This document shows positions 10,110-23,453 of a stretch of DNA of 25,605 nt, one piece after another. Source of the stretch: a virus (lineage: Duplodnaviria; Caudoviricetes); IMG/VR virus record IMGVR_UViG_3300042389_001946, positions 1 to 25,605 of that record. The stretch is one strand, 5' to 3'. The notes below the pieces were generated by a model. It was given only the letters and a program-made list of their open reading frames with translations. It ran no database searches and was not told where the DNA came from. Within the stretch, counting starts at the first letter, position 1. Every line of letters begins with the position of its first letter. Made by a program: the position numbers and the translations under genes.

Positions 10110-11885
10110 ATGTATGATAGTGATGTGAGAGTTAATCAGAATTTACCTGAGTATGGTAAATTTGTTGAAATAAAAGGAGATTCACGCTTTCCAGCGGTTT
10201 CTGTAACCCGTTTTAATAGTCCTAATGTAGCAGGAATGGCTCCAATCTCATCGGTTGATACGTATTCAAAATATGCAGTATTAACTCATTTAGTTAACGC
10301 TTCAGATATTAACCTCACTCTTTCAGCTAGTAATGTTGATATTGGCAATGTTGGTATCGTTGATCATACCACAGGAACAGATGTATATGCACAAATAGTC
10401 CGTACAGCTACTGTAGGTGGATCTGAAGTAGGTGCAGTGCGAGTTATAACAACAGGCATTACTCCTATAAGCGGTACTATTACTGTTAGTAATCCTATAA
10501 CTGCTGTTACAGTTCTTAATACAGTTAGTTCGTTCTCTCTAGTTAATCCAGTTACAGCAGTTACAATTAACAATCCAGTTAGTTCTTTTTCTTTAGTTAA
10601 TCCAGTTACAGCAGTTACAATTACAAATCCAGTTACTGCTATAAGCGTTACGCCTTTAATTAACTATTCTGGAAATTACAACTTAGCGTCTGATGCGTTT
10701 GGTCGCACAAGAACGTCTTCACCTCTAACTCTTTTTGATTCATCACATAGATATGCCGACAACAATCTTTGGTCTACTCTCACAGGTGGCACAACCACAA
10801 CCTCTGCATCTGCTCAGTTTAATCAAAATCAAGGACTGGTAGAGTTAAAGGTAGATGCATTAAGTGGCTCTAAAATATATAGAGAGACAACAAAAGTGTT
10901 TGCTTATCAACCAGGCAAATCGTTACAGATAATGAGTACCTTTACTTTTAGTCCTTCTACTACCAACCTAAGACAGCGTGTTGGTTATTATGGAGCTGAA
11001 AACGGTATATATTTAGAACTAGATGATAGTTCATTGTATATGGTTGAACGCAGCCTTGTAACTGGTACTGTTACTTCAACGAGAATACCACAATCAGGAT
11101 GGAATGTTGATAAGCTTGATGGTTCAGGACCATCAGGAATTACGCTTGATATTACAAAAGCACAAATCCTATTCATGGATATAGAATGGCTGGGGTTAGG
11201 TACTGTTAGAACTGGGTTTGTTATTAATGGTCAGTTTGTACCATGTCATTACTTTCATCACGCTAACATAATTGACTCTACATATATTACCACCGCGTCT
11301 TTACCTCTAAGATACGAAATAGAAAATAAAGCAGCTACATCAGGCCCTAGTAAATTGAAGCAAGTATGTAGTACGGTTATATCTGAAGGTGGCTATGAAT
11401 TAAGAGGATTACAACAAGCAGCATCTATCCCAATTAATGCACCAAAAACATTTGCGGATGCAAATACATATTATCCAATCATTTCAATTAAATTGAGAAC
11501 AGATAGATTGGATGCTATTGTTATAATGACAGCATTATCCATTTTAGGAGCTGGGGATAATAAAAGCTATAATTGGCAAGTTAGAGCATCTGGAACAACA
11601 ACAGGTGGGCAGTGGTTGAGTGCTGGATCAGATAGCGCAGTGCAATATAATATTAACGGTACAAGTTTTGCAGGTGGGAGAATATTGGCTAGTGGATATG
11701 TGAGTTCTAACAATCAAAGCTCTGCTTCTGTTGATATTCTAAAAGAAGCTCTCTTTAAATTTCAACTGGAGAGAAATTATTTTACCAGCACTCCTTACGA
11801 ACTCACATTAGTTGCAGCTGCTAATAGTTCCAGTGGAGCAACTGGTATGTATGCTTCCATGGATTGGGAAGAGATAAGTAGATAA
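10110..11885 (+). CDS. putative virion structural / tail-fibre-like beta-rich protein
   Basis: GACTAAATA late box; Ser/Thr/Gly-rich; NPVTAVT repeats followed by a DAFGR...YQPGKS...DIEWLG domain. Confidence 0.7.
   Translation: MYDSDVRVNQNLPEYGKFVEIKGDSRFPAVSVTRFNSPNVAGMAPISSVDTYSKYAVLTHLVNASDINLTLSASNVDIGNVGIVDHTTGTDVYAQIVRTATVGGSEVGAVRVITTGITPISGTITVSNPITAVTVLNTVSSFSLVNPVTAVTINNPVSSFSLVNPVTAVTITNPVTAISVTPLINYSGNYNLASDAFGRTRTSSPLTLFDSSHRYADNNLWSTLTGGTTTTSASAQFNQNQGLVELKVDALSGSKIYRETTKVFAYQPGKSLQIMSTFTFSPSTTNLRQRVGYYGAENGIYLELDDSSLYMVERSLVTGTVTSTRIPQSGWNVDKLDGSGPSGITLDITKAQILFMDIEWLGLGTVRTGFVINGQFVPCHYFHHANIIDSTYITTASLPLRYEIENKAATSGPSKLKQVCSTVISEGGYELRGLQQAASIPINAPKTFADANTYYPIISIKLRTDRLDAIVIMTALSILGAGDNKSYNWQVRASGTTTGGQWLSAGSDSAVQYNINGTSFAGGRILASGYVSSNNQSSASVDILKEALFKFQLERNYFTSTPYELTLVAAANSSSGATGMYASMDWEEISR
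10522..10633 (+). repeat. 54-nt-period coding tandem repeat (18 aa, VSSFSLVNPVTAVTIxNP)
   Basis: Exact 30-mer tagttaatccagttacagcagttacaatta at 10540-10569 and 10594-10623. Confidence 0.9.
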
Positions 11886-11902
11886 CAGACTAAATAATTA
11901 AC

Positions 11903-12271
11903 ATGAAAGAGGTAGTTATTAATTTAAATGTAAATTCTATAGCGAGTGTGGATTATTCAAATGATCGAGCAACACCTAGAGTGAATGTCTTTAGGGAACC
12001 TTATACACTACCTGTAGATCATGTATATTTAGTAGATGATAATAATAAACCGTGTTTAGATATTACGTCACCTGGTCTATACACTTATTCTTTTAATATT
12101 AATGAAGCAGAAGGCGAGCGATGTGGTGTGGATATCTTTAGCGTGCTCGCAAATGATGTTTATATAGTATCAGATATAATCCCCGTTAAAAAACTATTCG
12201 GTACAATTAAACAACACCAAATATCTATACGCAAAGGCGGTATCTATAATATTACAATAGATATTCTATAA
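11903..12271 (+). CDS. hypothetical late protein
   Basis: 122-aa ORF; GACTAAATA box 6 nt upstream. Confidence 0.7.
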   Translation: MKEVVINLNVNSIASVDYSNDRATPRVNVFREPYTLPVDHVYLVDDNNKPCLDITSPGLYTYSFNINEAEGERCGVDIFSVLANDVYIVSDIIPVKKLFGTIKQHQISIRKGGIYNITIDIL

Positions 12272-12286
12272 TAATCAAAAAAATAT

Positions 12287-12680
12287 TGGTGGACACGACG
12301 GGAATTGAACCCGTGTCCTCTACTAGCTCCTACCGATCTTCAAACATGCTTATATTTGGTTCGTTAAGGTGAACCACACCTAGGGACGAATTGACTTCGT
12401 CCTCCACCAATGCATTAGACAGAATGCATACTGTTTGGGTTACCTGGTTTGTACTCAGAGCAGAGCAGGTTTTTCTCTGAGCGTTTTAGAACTTAAGCTG
12501 CGAGAGCAAGTTCACCACCAACGAATGACTCGTTGCGGGAACCGCGTCCGAAGATTGCGTTCACGACGTTTTTAGCTTTGCCGTTTGTTTTTGTTGAAAG
12601 GCTTTTTAAGAGGCCAACCTTGTCATTCCTCTGCATGCTAATCAATAGAACACTCGTACAGTCGAAACCAGAACGTGCCC
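12287..12680 (-). ncRNA. ssrA: tmRNA
   Basis: 5' GGGCACGTTCTGGTTTCGAC; 3' GGACACGGGTTCAATTCCCGTCGTGTCCACCA; acceptor stem with G3.U70; pk1 AGAGG/CCTCT; tag ORF at 12582-12493 = GKAKNVVNAIFGRGSRNESFVGGELALAA*. Confidence 0.96.
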
Positions 12681-12689
12681 TAAATTGTA

Positions 12690-12777
12690 TGGCGGAAGCA
12701 AAGAGAATCGAACTCTTGAGGGCTTTAAGACCCCAGCTGTTTTCAAGACAGGTTCCTCGACCGACCGGACTACTTCC
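12690..12777 (-). tRNA. trnS: tRNA-Ser(TGA)
   Basis: Acceptor GGAAGTA/TGCTTCC, anticodon loop CTTGAAA, long variable arm, GCCA end. Confidence 0.92.
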
Positions 12778-12785
12778 TTAAAATT

Positions 12786-12813
12786 ATTGTAAAATATATT
12801 TAATAAAAATCAA
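12786..12813 (-). promoter_or_regulatory. sigma70-like promoter for tRNA-Ser/tmRNA
   Basis: TTGATT-N16-TACAAT, 8 nt before tRNA-Ser; the spacer also contains TAAATA. Confidence 0.5.
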
Positions 12814-12877
12814 CTTTTTATTTCGTGATATCTTTTTCTATCATACATTCTACCCTTACTAACTACCATGTTTATAT

Positions 12878-13471
12878 TTACATAAAAACTCGTCTTTGCG
12901 ACCAACAATACTCAGAACAGCACTGATAGTATGCATCTTCTAAATTATCATAAATAACATTAAACCTAGTATGTATGTGTGCATGATTTCCACACTCGTA
13001 AATATTACCGTTAATGCGTGCCATTCCTGCAGAAACGTTGGGTTGAAAGGTTGGTGTTTCGGAAAAAACTATGTTATTATCAATAACACTAAATTGACGA
13101 CCTCTAGGGAAGGAAACTACACCTTCTGAATAATTATCTAAGCTCTCTAGCAGCAAAGGAGATATACCATCATCATCATCTAACCGTACTGTTGTAGTAT
13201 TATTACAGATCTCTTGACACTGTTTGCGAAAATCATCAAGAGATACATAGTGTACTGTTATGCGCGAGTCATCTATTTTTATCCTATCTTGTAAAAACTT
13301 CCCGGCAAATATATGCCATGTAAAATTTTCATCTGTTTGACTTAAAACAGATGGCTTTGTAAGTTTTTCAAATACGTTAAATTTAAATTCAAGACGCTCT
13401 TCATCTCGTACCTTATGTGCTCCTGTCGGTAGAAGACCTGGTATGCTAAATCGCGTTACAATTAATTTCAT
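12878..13471 (-). CDS. putative rhamnosyltransferase-like GT-A protein
   Basis: TRFS...FEKLTKPSVLSQTDENFTW...TVRLDDDD pattern. Confidence 0.75.
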   Translation of the reverse strand: MKLIVTRFSIPGLLPTGAHKVRDEERLEFKFNVFEKLTKPSVLSQTDENFTWHIFAGKFLQDRIKIDDSRITVHYVSLDDFRKQCQEICNNTTTVRLDDDDGISPLLLESLDNYSEGVVSFPRGRQFSVIDNNIVFSETPTFQPNVSAGMARINGNIYECGNHAHIHTRFNVIYDNLEDAYYQCCSEYCWSQRRVFM

Positions 13472-13475
13472 AAGA

Positions 13476-13601
13476 TTATTTCTTACGACTCTTTTTGACC
13501 TTTGGTTCTTTAACTGTTTTTGAGATCGTGAGAGTCTTACGAATCGTTACATTGCCACTCTTAACGGTAGCTCTTTTTGTTCTTGTTGTTGTTTTGGCCA
13601 T
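13476..13601 (-). CDS. small very basic protein (41 aa, MAKTTTRTKRATVKSG...KKSRKK)
   Basis: Manually translated; fills the gap between neighbouring genes; 15 Lys/Arg and 1 acidic residue. Confidence 0.65.
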   Translation of the reverse strand: MAKTTTRTKRATVKSGNVTIRKTLTISKTVKEPKVKKSRKK

Positions 13602-13612
13602 ATGCGTTTATA

Positions 13613-13870
13613 TTAAAATTGACTAACGGAAAGTCTATACAAAATCTTTCGTAAAGCAAAATCTTCTTCATCAGCTTTACGAATAATTTCAGTCTCTGCT
13701 GTAAAATTGTGTGATGTGTGTGCATCATGATCAACAACTAAATTACCGTTTTGATCAACATAGGCTCCTACGGGCCATGAGAGAGCTCGACGAAGAGTCT
13801 GTACGGTTACTCTAAGCTCTTCCTGTGTATCGAGCTCTGCTTCTATAATTGCTTTTGCTTTTACTTTCAT
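13613..13870 (-). CDS. hypothetical protein (start revised to MKVKAK, 85 aa)
   Basis: The ORF-track start lies inside tRNA-Leu; the first ATG after the tRNA is at 13870. Confidence 0.65.
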   Translation of the reverse strand: MKVKAKAIIEAELDTQEELRVTVQTLRRALSWPVGAYVDQNGNLVVDHDAHTSHNFTAETEIIRKADEEDFALRKILYRLSVSQF

Positions 13871-13880
13871 ACTTTTAAAG

Positions 13881-14170
13881 TGGTAGCCGTGGTCGGACTC
13901 GAACCGACAAGCCAGTAACGGCAACGGATTTTCATACCACTATAGTTTTCACTACCCTTTCGGTTTGTGGTCTGGACTATACCTTGATCATAGTATCTCT
14001 ACCTTAGATCCTCGCCGTCTAGTCTCTACACCTTCCTAATTTCTTAGGCTTGGCTCGGGGTTAGCATTTTAAAGCCTTCACCGAATTTGACGAGTTCTAC
14101 TCCTATCTTTTCAAACAGGGCACTCAAATTTCTCTAAGTCCGCAATGTTTACCAATTTCATCACACGGCC
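13881..14170 (-). tRNA. trnL: tRNA-Leu(TAA), intron-containing (exon 1 14170-14136, exon 2 13932-13881)
   Basis: Spliced product GGCCGTG...GCGGA CT TAA AA TCCGT...variable arm...GTTCGAGTC...CACGGCTACCA (87 nt). Confidence 0.93.
13933..14135 (-). mobile_element. self-splicing group I intron (IC3, Azoarcus-like, 203 nt, no ORF)
   Basis: Inserted after U34 and ends in G; P1 CTT/GAG with U.G pair; core motifs AAATTCGGTGAA, CCGAGCCAAG, GGTGTAGAGACTAGACGG, AAGGTATAGTCC. Confidence 0.93.
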
Positions 14171-14192
14171 ATTTTATTCTTTCTACATCGTT

Positions 14193-14210
14193 ATTATAAG
14201 CTAGTTCCTT
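14193..14210 (-). promoter_or_regulatory. AAGGAACT-N4-TATAAT promoter for tRNA-Leu(TAA)
   Basis: Fourth copy of the motif (AAGGAACT AGCT TATAAT), 22 nt before the tRNA. Confidence 0.7.
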
Positions 14211-14258
14211 TAGATTTTCCACAGTAAGTTTCTGTCTGAGAGTGACAAGATGGAATAT

Positions 14259-14951
14259 TTACTTTCTTATTAAATCTTTATTAAAGTGTGGGTGATTGAA
14301 AATATACCACCATATGCGCTCAAAAGCGCATGCTGTAAAATAAAAATTATATACACCGTGTCTTTTCCAAAAAAGACCAGTTGTGGATTCGAGACCAACA
14401 GATGATCTCAACCAACCTTCATATATATTTTCTCGTTTAAAGTTATCTATTAATTTAATATAGTAACATTTAGGTTTTTGTAAGATTAACTCACGGGTTA
14501 ACCCGAATTGTGCCCCGACTCCAAAATCGGTTCTATCTGGCAATTTATATAGACCTGCTGCATTTAATATTTCCTTTACGTTAAGAAACTGTTTATGATG
14601 TCGATGAGCCCAGTGCCTAGAAATAACTGCCTTTGTATACCATGTAAAATCAGCTAACACTGGTTGATGAATTTGTTCTAAAAAATCTGGACAATGATCA
14701 AACGGGCGACCTTGGCAAAAAATTGTATAATCCGCTAGATTATCGTAATTTTCGATAATATGCGTTAAGTATGTATGTGCTTCTTTCCCTATATTAAGTA
14801 GATGCTTAAAGCTAGGGTTAATATCAGTACTATCTTTATTATACACAATTATATCAAACCCTGCAACTTGTTTTAACCAATCAATGCTCTCTTTATATTT
14901 TGCAACAACAAGTTGTTTTGTCTTAATATTGTTATATTGTGATTCCATCAT
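14259..14951 (-). CDS. DUF3431-like glycosyltransferase-related protein
   Basis: LVVAKYKE, NIGKEAHTYLTHIIENYDNL, FCQGRPFDH, GAQF, FERIW. Confidence 0.8.
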   Translation of the reverse strand: MMESQYNNIKTKQLVVAKYKESIDWLKQVAGFDIIVYNKDSTDINPSFKHLLNIGKEAHTYLTHIIENYDNLADYTIFCQGRPFDHCPDFLEQIHQPVLADFTWYTKAVISRHWAHRHHKQFLNVKEILNAAGLYKLPDRTDFGVGAQFGLTRELILQKPKCYYIKLIDNFKRENIYEGWLRSSVGLESTTGLFWKRHGVYNFYFTACAFERIWWYIFNHPHFNKDLIRK

Positions 14952-14996
14952 ATAATGTTAGCTACTATATTTTATATCGGCTCTCAAGTAAATCAA

Positions 14997-15080
14997 TGGT
15001 GGGCAAGGAGAGACTCGAACTCTCACGCATCTCTGCACTGGCTTCTAAGACCAGCGTGGCTACCATTACACCACTTACCC
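14997..15080 (-). tRNA. trnL: tRNA-Leu(TAG)
   Basis: CTGGT CT TAG AA GCCAG; long variable arm; ACCA end. Confidence 0.95.
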
Positions 15081-15088
15081 TAATTAAA

Positions 15089-16192
15089 TTACGAAGAGAG
15101 AAGGTCGCTAAATTCTCTTTCTGATCTCGTAAGAGCATCTATATTCTGCTTAAGTGTCTCAGCTCTTTTAATAGTCGATTGAATTTTTCCTTTTGGTACA
15201 ATCATGAACCTACCATCCTTTAAGCCGAAGTTACCACCTCTACTGCCAGAGAATCTCAGATAAAACATTGGATCGTAACCACTATCTTCCTCAGGTAACT
15301 CTCCGTTATACATGACATGATTTGCTTTGAGCTCGTATGTGTCATCACCTACATTATCTAACTCTACTTTACCTTGTAGCAGCACATGAACATTATCCTC
15401 ACCAAACTTTTCACCATAATCAGCTCCATACATAGACATTAATTTAAGCTCTTTACTATTAATTTTTCTGTAATAAGATTGCTTAGACTTAACACCGTCT
15501 GGAAATTTTTCCTTCATATCCGAAACAAACTTTTCTACTTCTTCATGTTTACAAATGCTCTTACCAGACTTACAAGTTATTCCGCCATACTGCTGAAAGT
15601 CAGTAGGTTTGCTACCATCTTTATGTGAGATAAAGATAGCAGGACTTCCGTTGTATGTTAAGCTGAAATCACTTTTAGGCATACCCTTAGTTGTTTCAAT
15701 GCCGTTTATTTTAGACTTAACGCCATTTATATCTACATAGAAAAAGTCTTGTTCTATTTCAAGAAGAATAGTTTCAATCTGTCTTTTTATATTATCTATA
15801 ACGCGGTTCTCAGCTTTAAGTGTAGTACCTTTGCCTTTACCTAAGACTATAGGATATTCGTTTCCTTCAGTATCTTTTACTATATAAGTATCGAATTGAC
15901 TAGAGGTAGACCCTTCATCACCTGGCTCTGCTATACGTACAATTTCGAGATCTGCATCTTTAAGAATTTTTTCAAAACTACCTCTGTCAAAATTATCTAG
16001 AGGCTGTAGTCTAACGTCTTTAGATGAAGCACCTGGTTCTAAATTTTCATCCTTAGATGATATAATAGTAGCTATCTCTTTTTTTGAGTATTTCTTCTCA
16101 TTAATAAAATTGATTTTATGTCTATCTTGACCCACACTACCTTTAGGTGCTATTCGCTCTGTATAAAGTTTTTCTATTTCCCAGGAATGCAT
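15089..16192 (-). CDS. putative PD-(D/E)XK-like nuclease
   Basis: AE...PKSDF...IFISHKDG...FQQYGG arrangement; GACTAAATA late box. Confidence 0.6.
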   Translation of the reverse strand: MHSWEIEKLYTERIAPKGSVGQDRHKINFINEKKYSKKEIATIISSKDENLEPGASSKDVRLQPLDNFDRGSFEKILKDADLEIVRIAEPGDEGSTSSQFDTYIVKDTEGNEYPIVLGKGKGTTLKAENRVIDNIKRQIETILLEIEQDFFYVDINGVKSKINGIETTKGMPKSDFSLTYNGSPAIFISHKDGSKPTDFQQYGGITCKSGKSICKHEEVEKFVSDMKEKFPDGVKSKQSYYRKINSKELKLMSMYGADYGEKFGEDNVHVLLQGKVELDNVGDDTYELKANHVMYNGELPEEDSGYDPMFYLRFSGSRGGNFGLKDGRFMIVPKGKIQSTIKRAETLKQNIDALTRSEREFSDLLSS

Positions 16193-16229
16193 ACTTATAT
16201 ATTTAGTCTATTTAGTATAAAATAAAAGA

Positions 16230-16310
16230 TGGTACGGACGGCAGGATTCGAACCTGCGGTGATTGCCTCGGTGTAAACGAGGTGCGTTCGGCCACTACGC
16301 TAACGTCCGC
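16230..16310 (-). tRNA. trnV: tRNA-Val(TAC)
   Basis: CCTCG TT TAC AC CGAGG; GTTCGAATC; ACCA end; 8-nt variable region. Confidence 0.9.
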
Positions 16311-16320
16311 GTTAAAAATA

Positions 16321-16394
16321 TGGACGCACGTTCCAGTAACGCTCTGGACTACGCGGTTTTGCAGACCACTGCATGACTTCTCTGCCAACGTGCG
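16321..16394 (-). tRNA. trnC: tRNA-Cys(GCA), non-canonical T-loop
   Basis: Acceptor CGCACGT/ACGTGCG, U73, GTGGT CT GCA AA ACCGC; T-loop AGCGTTA. Confidence 0.88.
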
Positions 16395-16405
16395 AAATAA
16401 AACTA

Positions 16406-17251
16406 TCAACCAAAGCTTGTATCACGGTCAACTACATTTAGTCTCGGCGTTTCAGGCTGCGGTTCTTCCTTTGTTGGTTCTGGCTCCTTCTTTGGCGTTT
16501 TTTCTTCTTTGAGAAGAGAGCCTGTAGAAGCAATATTATAAGATAACAGAAGCGCCACAGCAAGTGGATCAAATACTGCTATAATTACACAGATAAACCA
16601 AATAACAACGGTATCAAGAGGTTTATCAACCTGTTGAGCTATAAACTTAAATGTACCGATATCTTTTGCTTTAGATATTTCTGTTTTTAAACTTATAACC
16701 TCGTTATCCTTTTCAAATTTAAGCGTTTGAAGTGATTGTGTTCTTGATGTGAGGTCTTTAATTTCTGCAGCTGAGCGTTCAATATCAGCGTAAATAGGAG
16801 CAGCTGACTGTCTAGACATAGACGGTAAGCGCTTTTCCTGCGATTCACGCGACTTATTGAGTGTATCAACACGTGTATTAATCTGTTGTATCTCGTTATC
16901 GAGACTTGCTTTTTGTTGTTCAATAAGAGTTATCTGTGAATCGATGCCTGAAAATTTAGCTGAATTAACTTGGTAAGCAGAAGAAAGATAACCAAATATA
17001 CCAAGAGATGTTATTGCCATTAAGATAAGAATAGCAATTGACATATACGCTTTAAGCCACCACACTGTTTTTGTCCAGTAACGATATAAATAGGAAGTAC
17101 CTACAACCTTACCAAATTCAAGCGCACCTGCCATAATCAAGACCTGGTAATAGCTGCCCATGAAGAGAGTCGCAATACCCTGTACAGAAAAATACGCTGC
17201 TGATCCAGCTACAAGCATAGCACTTAGAAATAATAACAACCTGAAGAACAT
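16406..17251 (-). CDS. membrane protein with central coiled coil
   Basis: Three N-terminal hydrophobic helices, a heptad-rich middle and a C-terminal TM (FDPLAV); TAAATA 5 nt upstream. Confidence 0.8.
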   Translation of the reverse strand: MFFRLLLFLSAMLVAGSAAYFSVQGIATLFMGSYYQVLIMAGALEFGKVVGTSYLYRYWTKTVWWLKAYMSIAILILMAITSLGIFGYLSSAYQVNSAKFSGIDSQITLIEQQKASLDNEIQQINTRVDTLNKSRESQEKRLPSMSRQSAAPIYADIERSAAEIKDLTSRTQSLQTLKFEKDNEVISLKTEISKAKDIGTFKFIAQQVDKPLDTVVIWFICVIIAVFDPLAVALLLSYNIASTGSLLKEEKTPKKEPEPTKEEPQPETPRLNVVDRDTSFG

Positions 17252-17303
17252 GTCTATATTTATTTAATCTTTTTTTATTGATATCATTATACCTCTTTGT
17301 ATA

Positions 17304-18038
17304 TCAATTGATTTCTAATAGCGTACACGAAGATCCGAACGATTGATCATTCCAGTCAATGAGAGGTAATTGCAAATGTTTTCTCCACTCGTTCATCTGT
17401 TGCATCTTTTGATCGTGATTGTATGCACCTGTAGCATGATGCAATGTTAATTCTTTTGCGTGTACATCTCTAATTGCGCCTGAGAAAAAATAATTAGAAT
17501 CTAGAAGAGCACGCGATACATTAAGCTCTCTAAGCAAATTGTTTATAACACTCTGATCTCCGAGTTTATACTGTGAAAAATCATGTTCTAATGTTTTGTC
17601 TAATAATAGAGAAATTTTGGGAGACTTTTTAATCATAAAAAATCCAGTATTCGCATCTTTATTCAATTCATACCATATGCAATTGTTGCTATTAACAAAA
17701 GGTTGATCAGATTGGCCAATATACAAATATTGGCTTTCTTTCATGTCTTGCCAAACTTTAACAATTACTTCGGGGTTAAAAACTTGAATGTCGGAATCTA
17801 TTAGACCAATAATATCTCCATCATCTACAAGATCATACAGCTCTTTTAAGAGCTCTATCTTTTTCCTCACAAAAAAGAACCATTCATTGCTTCGAAAGCC
17901 GTTAGATCGTTTATTAAACTTACATGCATTTATGTGTATTCGATCATGTTCTAATCCACGTGTACAATTTCGAGCAAGCGGAGCGAATTCTTCATTATAA
18001 CAAACTATAAAGTTTAAATGGTTATTTTTATATATCAT
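17304..18038 (-). CDS. nucleotide-diphospho-sugar transferase (GT-A; GT77/GT34-like)
   Basis: LIDSDI (DxD), NTGFF, DQSVINNLL, HHA. Confidence 0.8.
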   Translation of the reverse strand: MIYKNNHLNFIVCYNEEFAPLARNCTRGLEHDRIHINACKFNKRSNGFRSNEWFFFVRKKIELLKELYDLVDDGDIIGLIDSDIQVFNPEVIVKVWQDMKESQYLYIGQSDQPFVNSNNCIWYELNKDANTGFFMIKKSPKISLLLDKTLEHDFSQYKLGDQSVINNLLRELNVSRALLDSNYFFSGAIRDVHAKELTLHHATGAYNHDQKMQQMNEWRKHLQLPLIDWNDQSFGSSCTLLEIN

Positions 18039-18066
18039 ATACAGTATTTACACTCATGTAAAAAAA

Positions 18067-18140
18067 TGGCACGTCGTGTAGGAATCGAACCCACGTTAGC
18101 AGATTTGGAATCTGCAGTCCTGCCATTGAACGAACGACGC
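18067..18140 (-). tRNA. trnW: tRNA-Trp(CCA)
   Basis: GCAGA TT CCA AA TCTGC; GCCA end. Confidence 0.95.
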
Positions 18141-18141
18141 A

Positions 18142-18216
<75 letters not shown>

Positions 18217-18247
18217 TTTAAAAAAGACAAAGCGAAATTTAGTTTAA

Positions 18248-18778
18248 TCAAAAACCCAGTTTGTTCTTTAATTTCTGAAATGTAGATTGAGGCTTAAAGG
18301 ATTTAACCTTATGGGCAGGAGGAGTTGATTGCCTCTTTTCCGACCTTGCTCCTACATCTTTAGCTTCTTGCTTTAATATATCTGAAGCCTTGTAACCAAA
18401 GCGATGGAGATCAAAATACATTTTTTTGTCTGTATTAGTAATATATTTTTTTGCTAACTGCTCAGCAGCTGCTATAATCTGTTCGGGTGTACTTTGAGCC
18501 GTTAAATTTAATTCCTTCACGTATCTCAACGAACCTGGTTTATTATATGTATCTAAAAATACCTTAGGATCTTCAAAAGTTGATCTTATATTATCTTGGT
18601 TCATTCTTTCCCAGTCCCGTCTTGATGATTGAAGTTCTCTTTCTTGCTCCTGTTCTCTTGTTGGTCTTGACCTGGGCGCAGAGTCTTCAATATCCCCATA
18701 TTTATTACGAACTTCAAAACTAGCCTCTAAAACCTTATCATATGCTTCAGCTATAAGAATCTCATCTCTCGTCTTCAT
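18248..18778 (-). CDS. hypothetical late protein, possible head-packaged internal protein
   Basis: TAAATA 6 nt upstream; N-terminus MKTRDEILIAEAYDKVLEA contains I/V-x-E|A motifs. Confidence 0.7.
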   Translation of the reverse strand: MKTRDEILIAEAYDKVLEASFEVRNKYGDIEDSAPRSRPTREQEQERELQSSRRDWERMNQDNIRSTFEDPKVFLDTYNKPGSLRYVKELNLTAQSTPEQIIAAAEQLAKKYITNTDKKMYFDLHRFGYKASDILKQEAKDVGARSEKRQSTPPAHKVKSFKPQSTFQKLKNKLGF

Positions 18779-18818
18779 TATCTTTATTTATGCAAATTTA
18801 TCAACTAATCTATAAAAA

Positions 18819-18895
18819 TGGTCGGGATGACACGATTCGAACATGCGACATCTGCGTCCCAAACGCAGCGCTCTACCAGGCTGAGCTACATCCCG
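18819..18895 (-). tRNA. trnP: tRNA-Pro(TGG)
   Basis: Acceptor CGGGATG/CATCCCG; CTGCG TT TGG GA CGCAG. Confidence 0.96.
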
Positions 18896-18899
18896 TAAA

Positions 18900-18975
18900 T
18901 GGAGCCGGATATCAGAATTGAACTGATGACCTATCGCTTACAAGGCGATTGCAACTACCACTGTGCTAATCCGGC
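18900..18975 (-). tRNA. trnT: tRNA-Thr(TGT)
   Basis: Acceptor GCCGGAT/ATCCGGC; ATCGC CT TGT AA GCGAT. Confidence 0.95.
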
Positions 18976-18983
18976 GTAAAAAC

Positions 18984-19637
18984 TTATAAATTGTTCATAC
19001 TCCCTCTCTTTTTTCCGTTTTGTGGAACAAAGTCGGGGAGATATTTAGAAAAAGATTTGACAAGATTGGGTTGTGAATGCTTATAACCTATTCTTTGAAC
19101 ACCACTAAACCCTTCCTTGCAGTATATATTATATAAATCACTAAGCTCTTTTTGTTTGTTTAATAGATTGAGCTGCATTTTTTGTTGTCTTTGTTTCTTT
19201 TTTGCTTCTTTTGCTCTGACTGTATGATATGAAGCAATTCTTCCTCTCTCCCAACCTAGAGGTATTTGTTCTATTGTTTTTGCTTCCTCAATACCGTTAG
19301 TAATCCAGAAAGTTCCCGATTGTGAATTATTTTGACCACTTTGTGATGCTGATTGAGCTTTACTAAACTTTCTTCTCAACCAGCCATACATTTTGTTGTT
19401 TAGCCTTTTAGGTATCATCATTGCAGCAGCTCTAATTAGTTTATAATTATTTGGATTGATCTTAACTAATAATTGATGCGCTATATAATGCTCTTCTGGT
19501 GTGAGGCTAACAAGATTACTTTCTTCATCGGTACCTCCCATACATCTCGGAATGATATGGTGCTTTTCTTTATAGCCTTCTAGAACTCTTTCTCTTCCTC
19601 TTTCTATGAGTTTATTATAGATTAGTTCGTAATTCAT
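18984..19637 (-). CDS. free-standing HNH homing endonuclease
   Basis: HHIIPRCMGG...NLVSLTPEEHYIAH HNH core; WITNG NUMOD-like motif; basic C-terminus. Confidence 0.9.
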   Translation of the reverse strand: MNYELIYNKLIERGRERVLEGYKEKHHIIPRCMGGTDEESNLVSLTPEEHYIAHQLLVKINPNNYKLIRAAAMMIPKRLNNKMYGWLRRKFSKAQSASQSGQNNSQSGTFWITNGIEEAKTIEQIPLGWERGRIASYHTVRAKEAKKKQRQQKMQLNLLNKQKELSDLYNIYCKEGFSGVQRIGYKHSQPNLVKSFSKYLPDFVPQNGKKRGSMNNL

Positions 19638-19687
19638 AACTGTTAACTATAATATTTAATGTATTACTACCAAATTAACAGTAAAAA

Positions 19688-19763
19688 TGGCTCCCCGGGT
19701 TGGTCACGATCCAACGACATCCGCATTAACAGTGCGGCGCTCTGCCAACTGAGCTACCGGGGA
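19688..19763 (-). tRNA. trnN: tRNA-Asn(GTT), non-canonical T-loop
   Basis: Acceptor TCCCCGG/CCGGGGA; CCGCA CT GTT AA TGCGG; T-loop ATCGTGA. Confidence 0.93.
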
Positions 19764-19858
19764 ATTAAAAATTGTGCAGGGTTTATCGTCATTCTCTTTG
19801 GACATCCTCCTGCTTATTCCAAATCAGTTGGGAGCTACCACAACAGCGAGCTTACTTA

Positions 19859-20092
19859 TCAATTACCATTGACAAAAGTGTAGAGCTCTTTTGCTCTATC
19901 AATTATCTGTTCTGATGTAGGTAGAAGATCAGCAATTTCTTGCTCGTTAATTTTTTCTTCTACCCATGTTCCATCTTCTATCATTCGCTTCTTTCTATTG
20001 TGAAGCTTTTCGTGATAGATGTTCATAAGATCGCCGTGAGCGATGCTTAATACTTCCAACCTTATTTCGTATGCATTTTTTTGTGTGTTCAT
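19859..20092 (-). CDS. small hypothetical phage protein
   Basis: 77 aa, KNAYEIRLEVL...IIDRAKELYTFV; plausible helical protein. Confidence 0.75.
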   Translation of the reverse strand: MNTQKNAYEIRLEVLSIAHGDLMNIYHEKLHNRKKRMIEDGTWVEEKINEQEIADLLPTSEQIIDRAKELYTFVNGN

Positions 20093-20257
20093 ATGTGTGT
20101 AATGTCAGAGTGTTTTGTCTGACGATACTACTTATTGCACAAATTATCAAATGCAAGAAAATTTGCCCATAACAGATTGCTGCTACACTCACCCAGGGCT
20201 GGGGCTATCTAGAAACCACATCTAGCTGCGTCATACTTTATCGTGTATGAATACGAA

Positions 20258-20328
20258 TTGCGAGGGGGAGGAATTTAACCTCCACTCTAGACTATGGGCC
20301 TAGCGATCTCCGTATGATCCCTCTCGCA
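20258..20328 (-). tRNA. degenerate tRNA-Met-like element (anticodon CAT, no encoded CCA)
   Basis: TGCGAG/CTCGCA acceptor; D stem GATC/GATC; CTAGG CC CAT AG TCTAG; GGAGG TTAAATT CCTCC. Confidence 0.65.
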
Positions 20329-20333
20329 AAGTG

Positions 20334-20517
20334 TTTTCCCCACTACCGAATAATTGACCAGAGTCAACTTGAAGAAACGCAGTGACTATTTCATCTTGGT
20401 GGCTAATTCCAAGACTAGTTTAATGTGCGTCGGATTACATTCGGCGTCATCGGGTTGCCATCCCGTTCTTAGCCTCAATGCTCATTGTAGGATCATCGCC
20501 TACAATGGCAGGGAAAA
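20334..20517 (-). ncRNA. pseudoknotted multi-stem structured RNA (possibly manA-motif-like)
   Basis: Nested stems TTTTCCC/GGGAAAA, CATTGTAGG/CCTACAATG, CGGG/CCCG, CCGAATG/TATTCGG, ACGCA/TGCGT, TCTTGG/CCAAGA, GTTGAC/GTCAAT; pseudoknot GGCTAA/TTAGCC. Confidence 0.7.
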
Positions 20518-20520
20518 AAA

Positions 20521-21312
20521 TTATTCGGCTAGTGCTTCATATCGACTTAAAATGTCTGTTGTATCAATATGATTGCGTTGTGGAAAAAAGGCGTAATGAA
20601 CAAATAAAGTATCACCTATAATTCGATTTATTGTACCTAGAGAGCGTGGCTTATCTACAGATAACCACTGTTCTTCGTTTTTACTAACAACTCCGCTAAA
20701 TTTTAAGAACTCATCACCCCGCCATGAAATTACATTAATAGAAACACGCTCATTAGCATATAACTGCCAATCTGGAAGAGTAAATTGGTGATCTTGTGCA
20801 AGCTTACTTAAAAAATCGCGATGTAATTTTTCTGCAAAGTCTGAATTCTTCCATCCTGTTGGGCACATACATGCATAACTAGACCTACCGTAGGATGCAT
20901 CAAGATTACCAGTGCGTTGATGTAGGTGTGTAATTAATGCATTATTAATAATATTACCGTATAACAAAAACGATGAAGTATCCTTAATACGTGCATCGAA
21001 TAGACTTGTTAGTGACCCTTGTCTAATATAAACAATATCATCGTCTAATCTTACATATATTTCATCAAGATTAATATAATCTGTAAAAAAGTTATAGATT
21101 GAATTGATACCATCTACAGGCACAGTAGGGTATTTGATACAAATAAAATCATACTGTTCTTGTAACGATTCTATATATCTAATATCGCTTTCATCGGTTG
21201 TATTAAGCCAGATATCCCACCTATCAAATTCACCTTTACATTTTATAAGATGTTTTAATAAAATCTTTAAATATCGCTCTCTACCAGCTGGAGTAACTAT
21301 AATGCGCAACAT
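20521..21312 (-). CDS. GT-A fold glycosyltransferase-like protein
   Basis: TPAGRERYL, YVRLDDDIVYI (DxD), VHYAFFPQR; TATAAATA upstream. Confidence 0.75.
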   Translation of the reverse strand: MLRIIVTPAGRERYLKILLKHLIKCKGEFDRWDIWLNTTDESDIRYIESLQEQYDFICIKYPTVPVDGINSIYNFFTDYINLDEIYVRLDDDIVYIRQGSLTSLFDARIKDTSSFLLYGNIINNALITHLHQRTGNLDASYGRSSYACMCPTGWKNSDFAEKLHRDFLSKLAQDHQFTLPDWQLYANERVSINVISWRGDEFLKFSGVVSKNEEQWLSVDKPRSLGTINRIIGDTLFVHYAFFPQRNHIDTTDILSRYEALAE

Positions 21313-21359
21313 AATGTATTTATATTTTATAATTTAAATTATAAATATCCATATATAAA

Positions 21360-21445
21360 TGGTGGGCAGAGCTGGATTCGAACCAGCGTAGGCGTTAGCC
21401 AGCAGATTTACAGTCTGCCCCCTTTAGCCACTCGGGCATCTACCC
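21360..21445 (-). tRNA. trnY: tRNA-Tyr(GTA)
   Basis: GCAGA CT GTA AA TCTGC; long variable arm; ACCA end. Confidence 0.96.
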
Positions 21446-21453
21446 ATAAAAAT

Positions 21454-21533
21454 TGGTTGCGGGGGTGAGAGTCGAACCCACACCGAAGCCTAGCTTATGA
21501 GACTAGTTCAGCACCACTACTGACTGCCCCGCG
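21454..21533 (-). tRNA. initiator-like tRNA-Met(CAT)
   Basis: Acceptor CGCGGGG/CCCCGCA with C1:A72 mismatch; CTAGT CT CAT AA GCTAG; ACCA end. Confidence 0.88.
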
Positions 21534-21545
21534 ATTGAAAATTGA

Positions 21546-21656
21546 GCCGACTAAAGAGGCGACATAGATACATTCCCGTACGCACCCGCATACGCAGTCC
21601 TGCACGTCATCTGTATCTATATACCGGGCATGGAGCCCGTTAACCTCTCTAGCGGC
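21546..21656 (-). ncRNA. unannotated 111-nt branched hairpin RNA
   Basis: Closing stem GCCG-CTAGAGAGG/CCTCTTTAG-T-CGGC; side hairpin CGGGC/GCCCG; ATAGATACA/TGTATCTAT; apical CGTGC/GTACG and CTGC/GCGG. Confidence 0.65.
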
Positions 21657-21677
21657 AAATATTAAAAAGTTGAAATT

Positions 21678-21737
21678 TAGTGAGCTTATTGCATCTCAAT
21701 CTCCCTCTCGGACCTTAGTGGCTTCTGGCGCTCACTA
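21678..21737 (-). ncRNA. unannotated 60-nt structured element
   Basis: Perfect 8-bp closing stem TAGTGAGC/GCTCACTA around short internal hairpins; starts 14 nt after a promoter -10 box. Confidence 0.45.
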
Positions 21738-21751
21738 CCTTCTGTCTTAAT

Positions 21752-21769
21752 ATAATATCTAAGTTCCTT
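21752..21769 (-). promoter_or_regulatory. AAGGAACT-N4-TATTAT promoter at the head of the ncRNA/tRNA array
   Basis: Fifth copy of the motif. Confidence 0.65.
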
Positions 21770-21778
21770 TAATCAAAT

Positions 21779-21812
21779 AAAAAAGCGAGCTTTTTTAGGG
21801 CTCGCTTTTTTT
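21779..21812 (-). terminator. intrinsic terminator (conditional; part of the putative attenuator)
   Basis: AAAAAAAGCGAGC-CCTAAAAAA-GCTCGCTTTTTT; a competing GCTCGCTTTT copy lies upstream at 21827-21836. Confidence 0.85.
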
Positions 21813-21836
21813 ATGTACCAGGAATGAAAAGCGAGC

Positions 21837-21905
21837 TTAAATAACGTACCATCCTGGGCAATTATTGCCAGGTAGTACAGTTACTGTTGTATAAGTGCTT
21901 TGCAT
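21837..21905 (-). CDS. putative attenuator leader peptide (22 aa, MQSTYTTVTVLPGNNCPGWYVI)
   Basis: GACTAAATA box 7 nt before the ATG, as for other late genes; the stop codon abuts the antiterminator arm. Confidence 0.7.
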   Translation of the reverse strand: MQSTYTTVTVLPGNNCPGWYVI

Positions 21906-21936
21906 GTAAGTTTATTTAGTCTAGTTGTATGATTTT

Positions 21937-23217
21937 TTATACAGTTATTCTGATTCTACTGCGAATTGCTGAAAGCTTACGCTTCTTGAGAAGTACTGCT
22001 CCACCTTCGCGTGATCCTTGACCATCGGTATTACCTTCGATTGTATCGATATAACCGTCTTGAGGATCGCTTATAGCTAAACCAATGTGTGAGAAGGTAA
22101 ACATAACAATGTCGCCAGCTTTGATATCATCTTTGTGAGGCTTCTTAAGTTGAACTTTATTATTCTGTTTTGCTGCCCAATCTTCAAATCCCCAAGCACT
22201 TGCTGTTGTTGGTCTCTTGAATGTATACGAATTGTCTTTCATAGCTTCGCGCATTAACCAGCAGATGAACGCTGCACACCATGGCCATCCTTGTTCTGGA
22301 TCTAAGGAGGTTGCTGATTTATATTCGTTAACTCTTGGACCGCAGTTAGTGCCATTTACTTCTTGAACTCCAATTTCTTTCCTAGCTAATTCAACTAACT
22401 TTACTGCTAGAGGAGCTTGTACAGCTGCAGGAGCTGATGCTGTAGTTGATGCTGTTACGATAGGAGCTTTTGTTGAACCCTTTACAAGAGCTGCTTCTTC
22501 ATCTCTACGTCTTAGTAGACCGTCTAGACCTTTTCCGACCCAAATACGCTTCATGTTTGTAATCTCTTTAGCAATTGCTGCATAGTCTTTACCAGCAATA
22601 AGACCGCGAATGTTTTTCATTTCTTCACGATTCTTACCAGTTACAGCTGCACCTCTATTGAATACAAGAGATACAAGAGCACCAAATGCATCTGGATGAA
22701 GCTCATTAGCACCTGGGAATGCTTTAAGTGTTTCATTTACAAATCTCGGTAATGTACTCTCTTTAAACACCTTAAGAGCGCTCTCCCATGGTATCTCAAT
22801 ATCCTTTACAGAAGGTATTAATGACTTAGCTGATGAGTTTTTAGCACCTAAACATTTGGATAATCTGCTAAATACATCGCCTGTGAGTACTTTACCCCAA
22901 TCTGATGTGAATTGATCATCGGTGTTATAACCTAAGTCATAACCAACGCCGATTGTTACACCAGAAGCACCGCCTGGGTAGCATGGCTTCTTAAGTGCTT
23001 TATTATAATAAGCTTCACCACCGCCTACTTCATGCTTGATAATTAAATCTAAAGCTTTTTGTGATATTGGTAGTTCAGGCTCTTGTACTGGAGCTGGTAC
23101 TGGTGCAGCAACTGGTGCTGGAGCTGATGGTTTTGCACTTGACTGAGCTACTGATTTAGCTGTAGGTGTAGTTAAGTACTTTAATACTGATGTTAATATG
23201 TCTAATGCGATTTTCAT
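21937..23217 (-). CDS. two-catalytic-domain endolysin: lysozyme/pesticin-like muramidase plus CHAP
   Basis: IIKHEVGG...PGGASGVTIGVGYDLG...LVSLVFNRG...GLLRRRDEEA; CHAP motifs PWCAAFICW, HIG, TIEGNT; Pro/Ala linkers. Confidence 0.9.
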   Translation of the reverse strand: MKIALDILTSVLKYLTTPTAKSVAQSSAKPSAPAPVAAPVPAPVQEPELPISQKALDLIIKHEVGGGEAYYNKALKKPCYPGGASGVTIGVGYDLGYNTDDQFTSDWGKVLTGDVFSRLSKCLGAKNSSAKSLIPSVKDIEIPWESALKVFKESTLPRFVNETLKAFPGANELHPDAFGALVSLVFNRGAAVTGKNREEMKNIRGLIAGKDYAAIAKEITNMKRIWVGKGLDGLLRRRDEEAALVKGSTKAPIVTASTTASAPAAVQAPLAVKLVELARKEIGVQEVNGTNCGPRVNEYKSATSLDPEQGWPWCAAFICWLMREAMKDNSYTFKRPTTASAWGFEDWAAKQNNKVQLKKPHKDDIKAGDIVMFTFSHIGLAISDPQDGYIDTIEGNTDGQGSREGGAVLLKKRKLSAIRSRIRITV

Positions 23218-23222
23218 AATCT

Positions 23223-23232
23223 TAAATATTTA
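23223..23232. promoter_or_regulatory. palindromic bidirectional late-promoter box TAAATATTTA
   Basis: TAAATA on both strands between the divergent endolysin and holin-like genes. Confidence 0.55.
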
Positions 23233-23453
23233 TGAAAAAAGGAATAAATACTTATGTTATGGAACAAATTATTCAACTACTCCAAGGCCAAGAATGGTTC
23301 GGTATCTTATCAGCAGTTGTTGCTTTAGCTTCAACTATCGCTGCTTCAACACCAACACCAACTCCTGGTACTCCGCTTGCAATGCTCTATAAGGTTATCG
23401 ATGTTTTAGCATTAAACATCGGTAAAGCTAAGCAAAAAGGCGACGAAAACTAA
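23232..23453 (+). CDS. holin-like small membrane protein (second in-frame start at 23259)
   Basis: Hydrophobic helix, TPTP turn, YKVIDVLALNIGKAK basic tail; lies in the lysis cassette. Confidence 0.7.
   Translation: MKKGINTYVMEQIIQLLQGQEWFGILSAVVALASTIAASTPTPTPGTPLAMLYKVIDVLALNIGKAKQKGDEN

Follow-up and report, generated by a model that had tools for sequence, protein, structure and literature searches.

The window (the whole stretch of DNA analysed here, 25,605 nucleotides) is part of a large phage, and according to Pfam and PHROG it encodes an endolysin, virion proteins and a homing endonuclease. It contains 12 tRNAs, a tmRNA and a group I intron, with every RNA gene on the minus strand. 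Eleven of the tRNAs, including the intron-bearing tRNA-Leu-TAA, are called by ARAGORN at its default threshold, and tRNA-Cys is called only at a lowered one. The sequence-only reading that preceded this analysis had listed twelve tRNAs; all twelve are present, and a second CAT tRNA at 20258-20328 is missing from its count. On the whole, the cluster comprises Met, Tyr, the second CAT tRNA, Asn, Thr, Pro, Ala, Trp, Cys, Val, Leu-TAG, Leu-TAA, Ser-TGA and the tmRNA. A near-identical 41-kb record, rated 20% complete, contributes no extra tRNA. A T4-type Gp23 is encoded by the relatives G002, G011 and G012 (three of the five records searched), and the G011 genome is complete with 212 kb. At least half of the sampled words from positions 20000-23400 are present in nine runs, all of them lake metagenomes, and two of these may be the source of the sequence. 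The features at and around the head of the cluster are listed below.

21937..23217, minus strand: upstream endolysin gene with lysozyme and CHAP domains (Pfam PF00959 and PF05257 over cut-off; PHROG endolysin)
21913..21918, minus strand: late-promoter-like hexamer, beginning 13 nt ahead of the leader start codon
21837..21905, minus strand: leader ORF of 22 codons plus stop, frame kept in homologs
21838..21885, minus strand: predicted inner hairpin across codons 8-22 (folding; three pairs changed on both sides in G006)
21824..21836, minus strand: segment 2, a 10-nt copy of the terminator 3' arm right after the stop codon, then the complement of the start codon
21779..21812, minus strand: predicted intrinsic terminator (3:4) with six G-C-rich pairs, a 9-nt loop and a U tract (detector and folding)
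21749..21776, minus strand: sigma70-like promoter candidate 3' of the terminator (9 of 12 positions match), a possible bypass
21672..21742, minus strand: unnamed structured RNA 1, the first element past the switch (conserved in 8 contigs; predicted fold)
21546..21656, minus strand: unnamed structured RNA 2, a long hairpin (predicted fold)
12287..21533, minus strand: tRNA/tmRNA cluster with protein genes interspersed (ARAGORN and Rfam scans)

The ORF has the coordinates and codons described in the sequence-only reading. The hexamer ahead of it resembles the consensus of T4 late promoters in PMC5587285. Out of 54 copies on both strands, the same motif occurs at a distance of 6-15 nt ahead of 15 of the 34 other genes of the window. 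It also precedes the leaders of the relatives L139 and G006. The leader mRNA is likely to be almost leaderless, starting near the start codon. The endolysin transcript may also extend into the leader. As for transcription as a single unit from the upstream promoter, the late motif lies upstream, yet a promoter-like site lies downstream of the terminator. A similar sigma70-like site is found in L139 and G006, the relatives without a leader have a near-consensus promoter at the corresponding place, and genes with late motifs within the cluster are further points of transcription entry. Contigs crossing the leader and the terminator (21745-21988 and 21684-21884) occur in RNA libraries of two studies at a depth below 5; their strand, ends and level are unreadable and DNA may be present, so that they are counted as no support.

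The predicted fold is built around segment 2, which can pair either with codons 1-4 (1:2) or with the 5' arm of the terminator (2:3). The terminator stands 46 nt beyond segment 2 and is the sole one detected on the minus strand of the window; it is symmetric and is found on the plus strand too. The 2:3 antiterminator helix has 10 bp, versus 6 bp in the terminator core, and the two are mutually exclusive. The RNA, ended at the U tract, was folded at 25 C with a mask for the ribosome. Under these settings the probability of the terminator is 0.89 without a ribosome, 0.0 with the ribosome at codons 1-7 and 14-19, and 0.9-1.0 at codons 8-13 and from codon 21 to the stop; footprints of 6-13 nt move the profile by one codon. 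In this in silico geometry a ribosome at the stop codon masks segment 2 and a stalled ribosome exposes it. According to the model, the leader is a three-state attenuator, with the terminator formed if it is untranslated or fully translated, and the antiterminator formed while a ribosome occupies codons 1-7 or 14-20. In a control with shuffled sequences, evaluated at every second codon, one of 150 had an equal number of read-through positions and none of 150 also formed the terminator in the untranslated state; for the G006 and G013 leaders the result is 0 of 60 shuffles each.

No Rfam cis-regulatory RNA, T-box included, reaches its gathering score in the window (11800-22100) or in six related loci. 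The thr and ilv leader attenuators are multivalent, and Thr_leader has a conserved Thr/Ile run ahead of the thr genes. The Thr operon leader (Rfam RF00506 Thr_leader) was tried as a candidate and rejected: it scores 28.8 bits (E 0.042) at 21776-21910, with a gathering score of 55. A leader responding to Thr only was likewise rejected, as the Thr codons drop from four in the window leader to two in L139 and one in G006, and the downstream genes are RNAs.

Homologs of the leader were searched with the neighbouring 86-residue gene, which gave 15 loci, and a leader was found in three of them besides the window's own record. They have 22 codons in the sister strain L134 (one codon differs), 23 in L139 (an in-frame 3-nt insertion) and 22 in G006; identity over the head region is 91% for L139 and 63% for G006. 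All three preserve the frame, the helices and the promoter motif. In the four aligned sequences the consensus fold has 39 pairs, 4 of them with both sides changed, which is conservation more than covariation; the antiterminator cells are paired in 39 of 40 cases, and the pairing of the start codon is retained in 4 of 4. The terminator of G006 carries one compensatory and one one-sided change. In L139, about 850 nt are inserted behind the endolysin gene, and the leader still adjoins RNA 1. Searches with exact leader patterns returned only the window's own record or chance matches (1 locus; 11 loci, of which 10 unrelated; 21 loci, of which 19 by chance), with none in the genome contigs and no match among annotated phages. 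Among relatives of the endolysin, tRNA clusters were found and no sequence homolog of the leader.

Similar leaders are also present before tRNA clusters of related phages. Among 97 distinct terminators in the loci compared, an ORF with an antiterminator is present at both terminators located at a cluster head, one of which is the window's own, versus 0 of the 95 others. A second conserved RNA is observed at the head of 14 tRNA clusters (L167, L169-L171, L173, L174 and L176-L183); it is different from RNA 1 of the window, and none of the six loci scanned gives an Rfam match for it at gathering score. Searching with a pattern of this head RNA, built from two leader-bearing loci, gave 18 loci, consisting of 4 unrelated ones and the 14 cluster heads. 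Of these heads, 11 have an ORF of 17-22 codons with a terminator, representing 8 distinct leaders, and 8 of 11 heads have a leader after the seed lineages are removed; the three heads without a leader all belong to one lineage. Over the 11 leaders, the three-state profile is clear in five and partial in three; that of G014 is without the untranslated state, and those of L171 and G005 show little or nothing of it. In G011-G014 and L171 the distance from the U tract to the head RNA is only about 12-25 nt, which leaves no room for a promoter. RNAs 1 and 2, which in the window lie between the switch and tRNA-Met and are noted for L109, L111 and L115 too, match no Rfam family at gathering score either; in their alignment both sides have changed in 11 of 46 pairs, and compensatory changes are numerous in the long hairpin of RNA 2. 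In seven of the eight contigs with RNA 1, all of one related lineage, the cluster starts at a plain promoter and no leader is found, which speaks against a general need for the leader.

We then consider the codons of the leader. That 17 of its 22 codons are readable by the tRNAs of the window presupposes that U34 decodes U-ending codons as well, which concerns four codons; A/G wobble gives 13 of 22. Among 6,419 windows of 21 codons from 37 genes of the window, with the start codon omitted, the extended count is reached by 197 and the strict count by 314; as 3-5% of CDS windows match equally well, the window by itself is weak evidence. The sequence-only reading had also pointed out that codons for Lys, Glu, Asp, Arg, Phe and His are missing; this pattern is rarer, seen in only 36 of the 6,419. 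Overall, the codon evidence from the window only is modest and was picked after the fact. More specific claims are not supported. The Leu codon CTA had been regarded as an exact match to tRNA-Leu-TAG, and the homologs L139 and G006 have other Leu codons; pooled over 8 phages, exact codon-anticodon matches amount to 48 versus 48.0 expected. The unsampled tRNA-Leu-TAA and tRNA-Ser-TGA had been explained by promoters of their own; promoter candidates do precede both, but they precede sampled tRNAs too, and the scan gives 46 sites versus 38 expected. The unsampled tRNA-Ala, formerly an unexplained exception, is no longer one in sister strains, where Ala is at codon 4 (L134; 4 of 4 runs carry this variant too). 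A strict mirror of the tRNA inventory is not supported either: the Gln and Ile codons have no matching tRNA here, and G005 has two Phe codons and no tRNA-Phe.

The two unmatched Gly codons of the leader match a tRNA-Gly that is found after Tyr in the sister strain L134 and in outgroups; the place of this tRNA-Gly-TCC is occupied in the window by a glycosyltransferase-like gene with a late motif (20521-21312, minus strand). Next to this gene, a GC-richer non-coding stretch (20330-20520, minus strand) lies ahead of the second CAT tRNA. It is 89% alike in L134 and has no Rfam match, and pieces related to it are seen as contigs in RNA libraries.

Covariation of the leader with the tRNA set was analysed in 8 phages, not independent of each other, in which a leader is present and the cluster could be followed to where it appears to end; the permutation test excluded L171, L134 and L139, whose contigs stop inside or before the cluster. 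At the level of amino acids, leader composition does covary with the tRNA sets: comparison of own with swapped sets gives 88/40,320, and 2/96 when swapping is kept within groups, which were drawn from weak head-region identities. tRNAs with low scores (those for Lys in G006 and G005 and for Tyr and Thr in G012) did not enter the main test; once the Lys tRNA of G006 and the Tyr tRNA of G012 are included, the result is 37/40,320. The own assignment gives 9/720 and 20/720 in two six-phage subsets, and after the last four codons are dropped 591/40,320 overall and 3/96 within groups. In addition, the size of the tRNA set is correlated with the number of different amino acids in the leader (Spearman 0.90, n=8). 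The window leader, with a set of 11 amino acids, matches its own set in 17 of 21 codons (binomial 0.006; sliding windows 316/8,430), G012, with a set of 9, in 13 of 16 codons (sliding windows 24/3,736), and G014, also with a set of 9, in 16 of 18 codons (sliding windows 0/1,251). These small-set phages fit one another poorly across lineages (33-57%): the window leader reaches 38% and 57% against the sets of G012 and G014, and their leaders reach 50% and 33% against the window set. For the five phages whose tRNAs cover 16-19 amino acids the binomial test is neutral; in diversity, four of these five leaders exceed 97% of CDS windows. The G005 leader has unmatched Phe and Lys codons. In G014 the sole tRNA amino acid left unsampled is Trp, and a near-consensus sigma70 promoter is located directly before tRNA-Trp (L169). 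The covariation rests on about two independent reductions of the tRNA set, and 6 of the 8 phage records are 15-35% complete. The match is at the amino-acid level, not at the anticodon level. Of the earlier proposal of a multiplexed tRNA sensor, the multi-amino-acid content following the downstream tRNA set is thus retained and the codon-anticodon level is given up; sensing itself we infer from folding alone.

Taken together, we consider it probable that this 22-codon ORF serves as the leader of a ribosome-coupled transcription attenuator, predicted at the head of the tRNA cluster, and that it reports shortage of the amino-acid families covered by the tRNAs. Late in infection, the host RNA polymerase would initiate near the start codon. 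A ribosome reaching the stop codon would cover segment 2, the terminator would form and transcription would end. A ribosome delayed at codons 1-7 or 14-20 would leave segment 2 free to form the antiterminator, and RNA polymerase would continue into both RNAs and the tRNA genes. If no ribosome is present, the start codon would pair behind segment 2 and the terminator would form. The late boost from the switch would be added to the output of the downstream sigma70-like promoter. Because of this promoter-like site and the late motifs inside the cluster, the switch would tune expression instead of gating it. Loss of usable tRNA is a more likely trigger than amino-acid starvation, since extra tRNA would not cure starvation, and since in T5-like phages the amount of phage tRNA determines whether tRNA-cleaving defences are escaped (PMC11555353). 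As a tentative extension, which we hold to be possible and somewhat short of an even chance, ribosomes stalled through decay of host tRNA or through anticodon nucleases would induce exactly the repairing tRNAs, with leader codons gained and lost along with tRNA genes; this would be an inducible counter-defence in T4-like freshwater phages.

Several other explanations have been weighed against this one. The element may be a real attenuator acting as a general gauge of translation speed or coupling; its agreement with the tRNA set would then merely follow from shared ancestry and RNA-structure constraints. The missing anticodon-level match, the large-set leaders that merely use many amino acids and the few independent contrasts all speak for such a gauge, as do the Arg, Glu and Phe codons in the leader of L139, although its head region is 91% identical. 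We regard it as unlikely nevertheless, since the near-complementary amino acids of the small-set phages track their own sets, the signal survives removal of the last four, structure-bound codons, and the lone unsampled tRNA of G014 has its own promoter. A vestigial or bypassed switch, in which the hairpin ends the endolysin and late transcripts and the cluster is driven by its own promoter, would agree with the promoter-like site at 21776-21749, with the relatives having the same head RNA and no leader, and with the symmetric terminator detected also on the plus strand. This is improbable considering that segment 2, the frame and the start-codon pairing are retained at 63% overall identity, and that a late motif of its own precedes the leader, which remains beside RNA 1 despite the upstream insertion.

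It is also conceivable that the peptide itself matters, its conserved C-terminal half being a nascent-chain arrest motif or a trans-acting small protein, for the last seven residues are largely common to the window, L139 and G006 with synonymous changes. The same C-terminal stretch doubles as the 3' arm of the inner hairpin, and no such peptide is common to the seven other leaders, leaving this reading very little weight. As to a chance ORF over a plain terminator, short ORFs are common and the window-only match is attained by a few percent of CDS windows; conservation of frame and pairing, the results for shuffled sequences, the absence of the arrangement at other terminators and its recurrence at other cluster heads make it scarcely credible.

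The preferred reading, attenuation by a multi-amino-acid leader, has several known counterparts. In actinobacteria, as the available text of PMC10274678 describes, the whiB7/wblC uORF attenuator has a short ORF with many different amino acids, whose composition determines which shortages are sensed; efficient translation leads to the terminator and stalling to the antiterminator. It differs in being bacterial, Ala-enriched and longer, with a transcription factor as its target, whereas the leader here is phage-borne, targets tRNA and other RNA genes, and has a composition tracking the tRNA set. With the enterobacterial leader-peptide attenuators (trp, leu; excerpts of PMC10274678), it shares the 1:2, 2:3 and 3:4 logic and the stop codon adjoining segment 2; unlike them, it lacks a run of one or two amino acids, is not followed by biosynthetic genes and would start almost leaderless from a phage promoter. 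The mycobacterial polycysteine sORF attenuators, as summarised in accessible parts of 10.1101/834739, also use a leaderless short ORF as a ribosome sensor, but with a single amino acid, and they control translation initiation instead of termination.

Why phages carry tRNAs has been an open question for decades (PMC10264068, available text). For the tRNA-rich regions of T5 and SP15, the expression level of the phage tRNA clusters determines rescue from tRNA-cleaving defences, expression is attributed to a strong promoter, and the string 'attenuat' is absent from the main text (PMC11555353). Neither 'phage' nor 'tRNA gene' occurs in the portions consulted of a genome-wide attenuator survey (PMC2965389). 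Leader-peptide attenuation would here extend to tRNA genes and to viruses; we found no such control of tRNA genes in the literature searched, which includes few subscription papers. If the leader tests the decoding of the same amino acids, phage tRNAs would be an on-demand supply, the leader would name the codons that the phage expects to fail, and models of depletion and of counter-defence would become testable. The present case contributes an example with a small tRNA set, together with a close homolog whose set is large and a sister strain that reveals a recent loss of a tRNA.

Some further observations concern the RNA genes of the clusters. Initiator tRNAs are characterised by an unpaired first base pair together with three G-C pairs in the anticodon stem. 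In the first tRNA-Met (21454-21533, minus strand), the first base pair is apparently unpaired, as in initiator tRNAs, and the three G-C pairs are missing from the anticodon stem. Non-standard T loops with intact stems, below the default ARAGORN threshold, are seen in tRNA-Cys (16321-16394), in the second CAT tRNA and in tRNA-Lys of G006 (L164 2427-2501). A tRNA with the anticodon CTA, labelled Pyl by ARAGORN, lies within the clusters of L170 and L180, and is possibly an amber suppressor or a sign of TAG recoding. The group I intron splitting tRNA-Leu-TAA (13881-14170, minus strand) scores 60.6 bits, and the clusters of G006 and G015 likewise contain group I introns. The cluster is closed by a tmRNA with a long tag peptide (12287-12680, minus strand).
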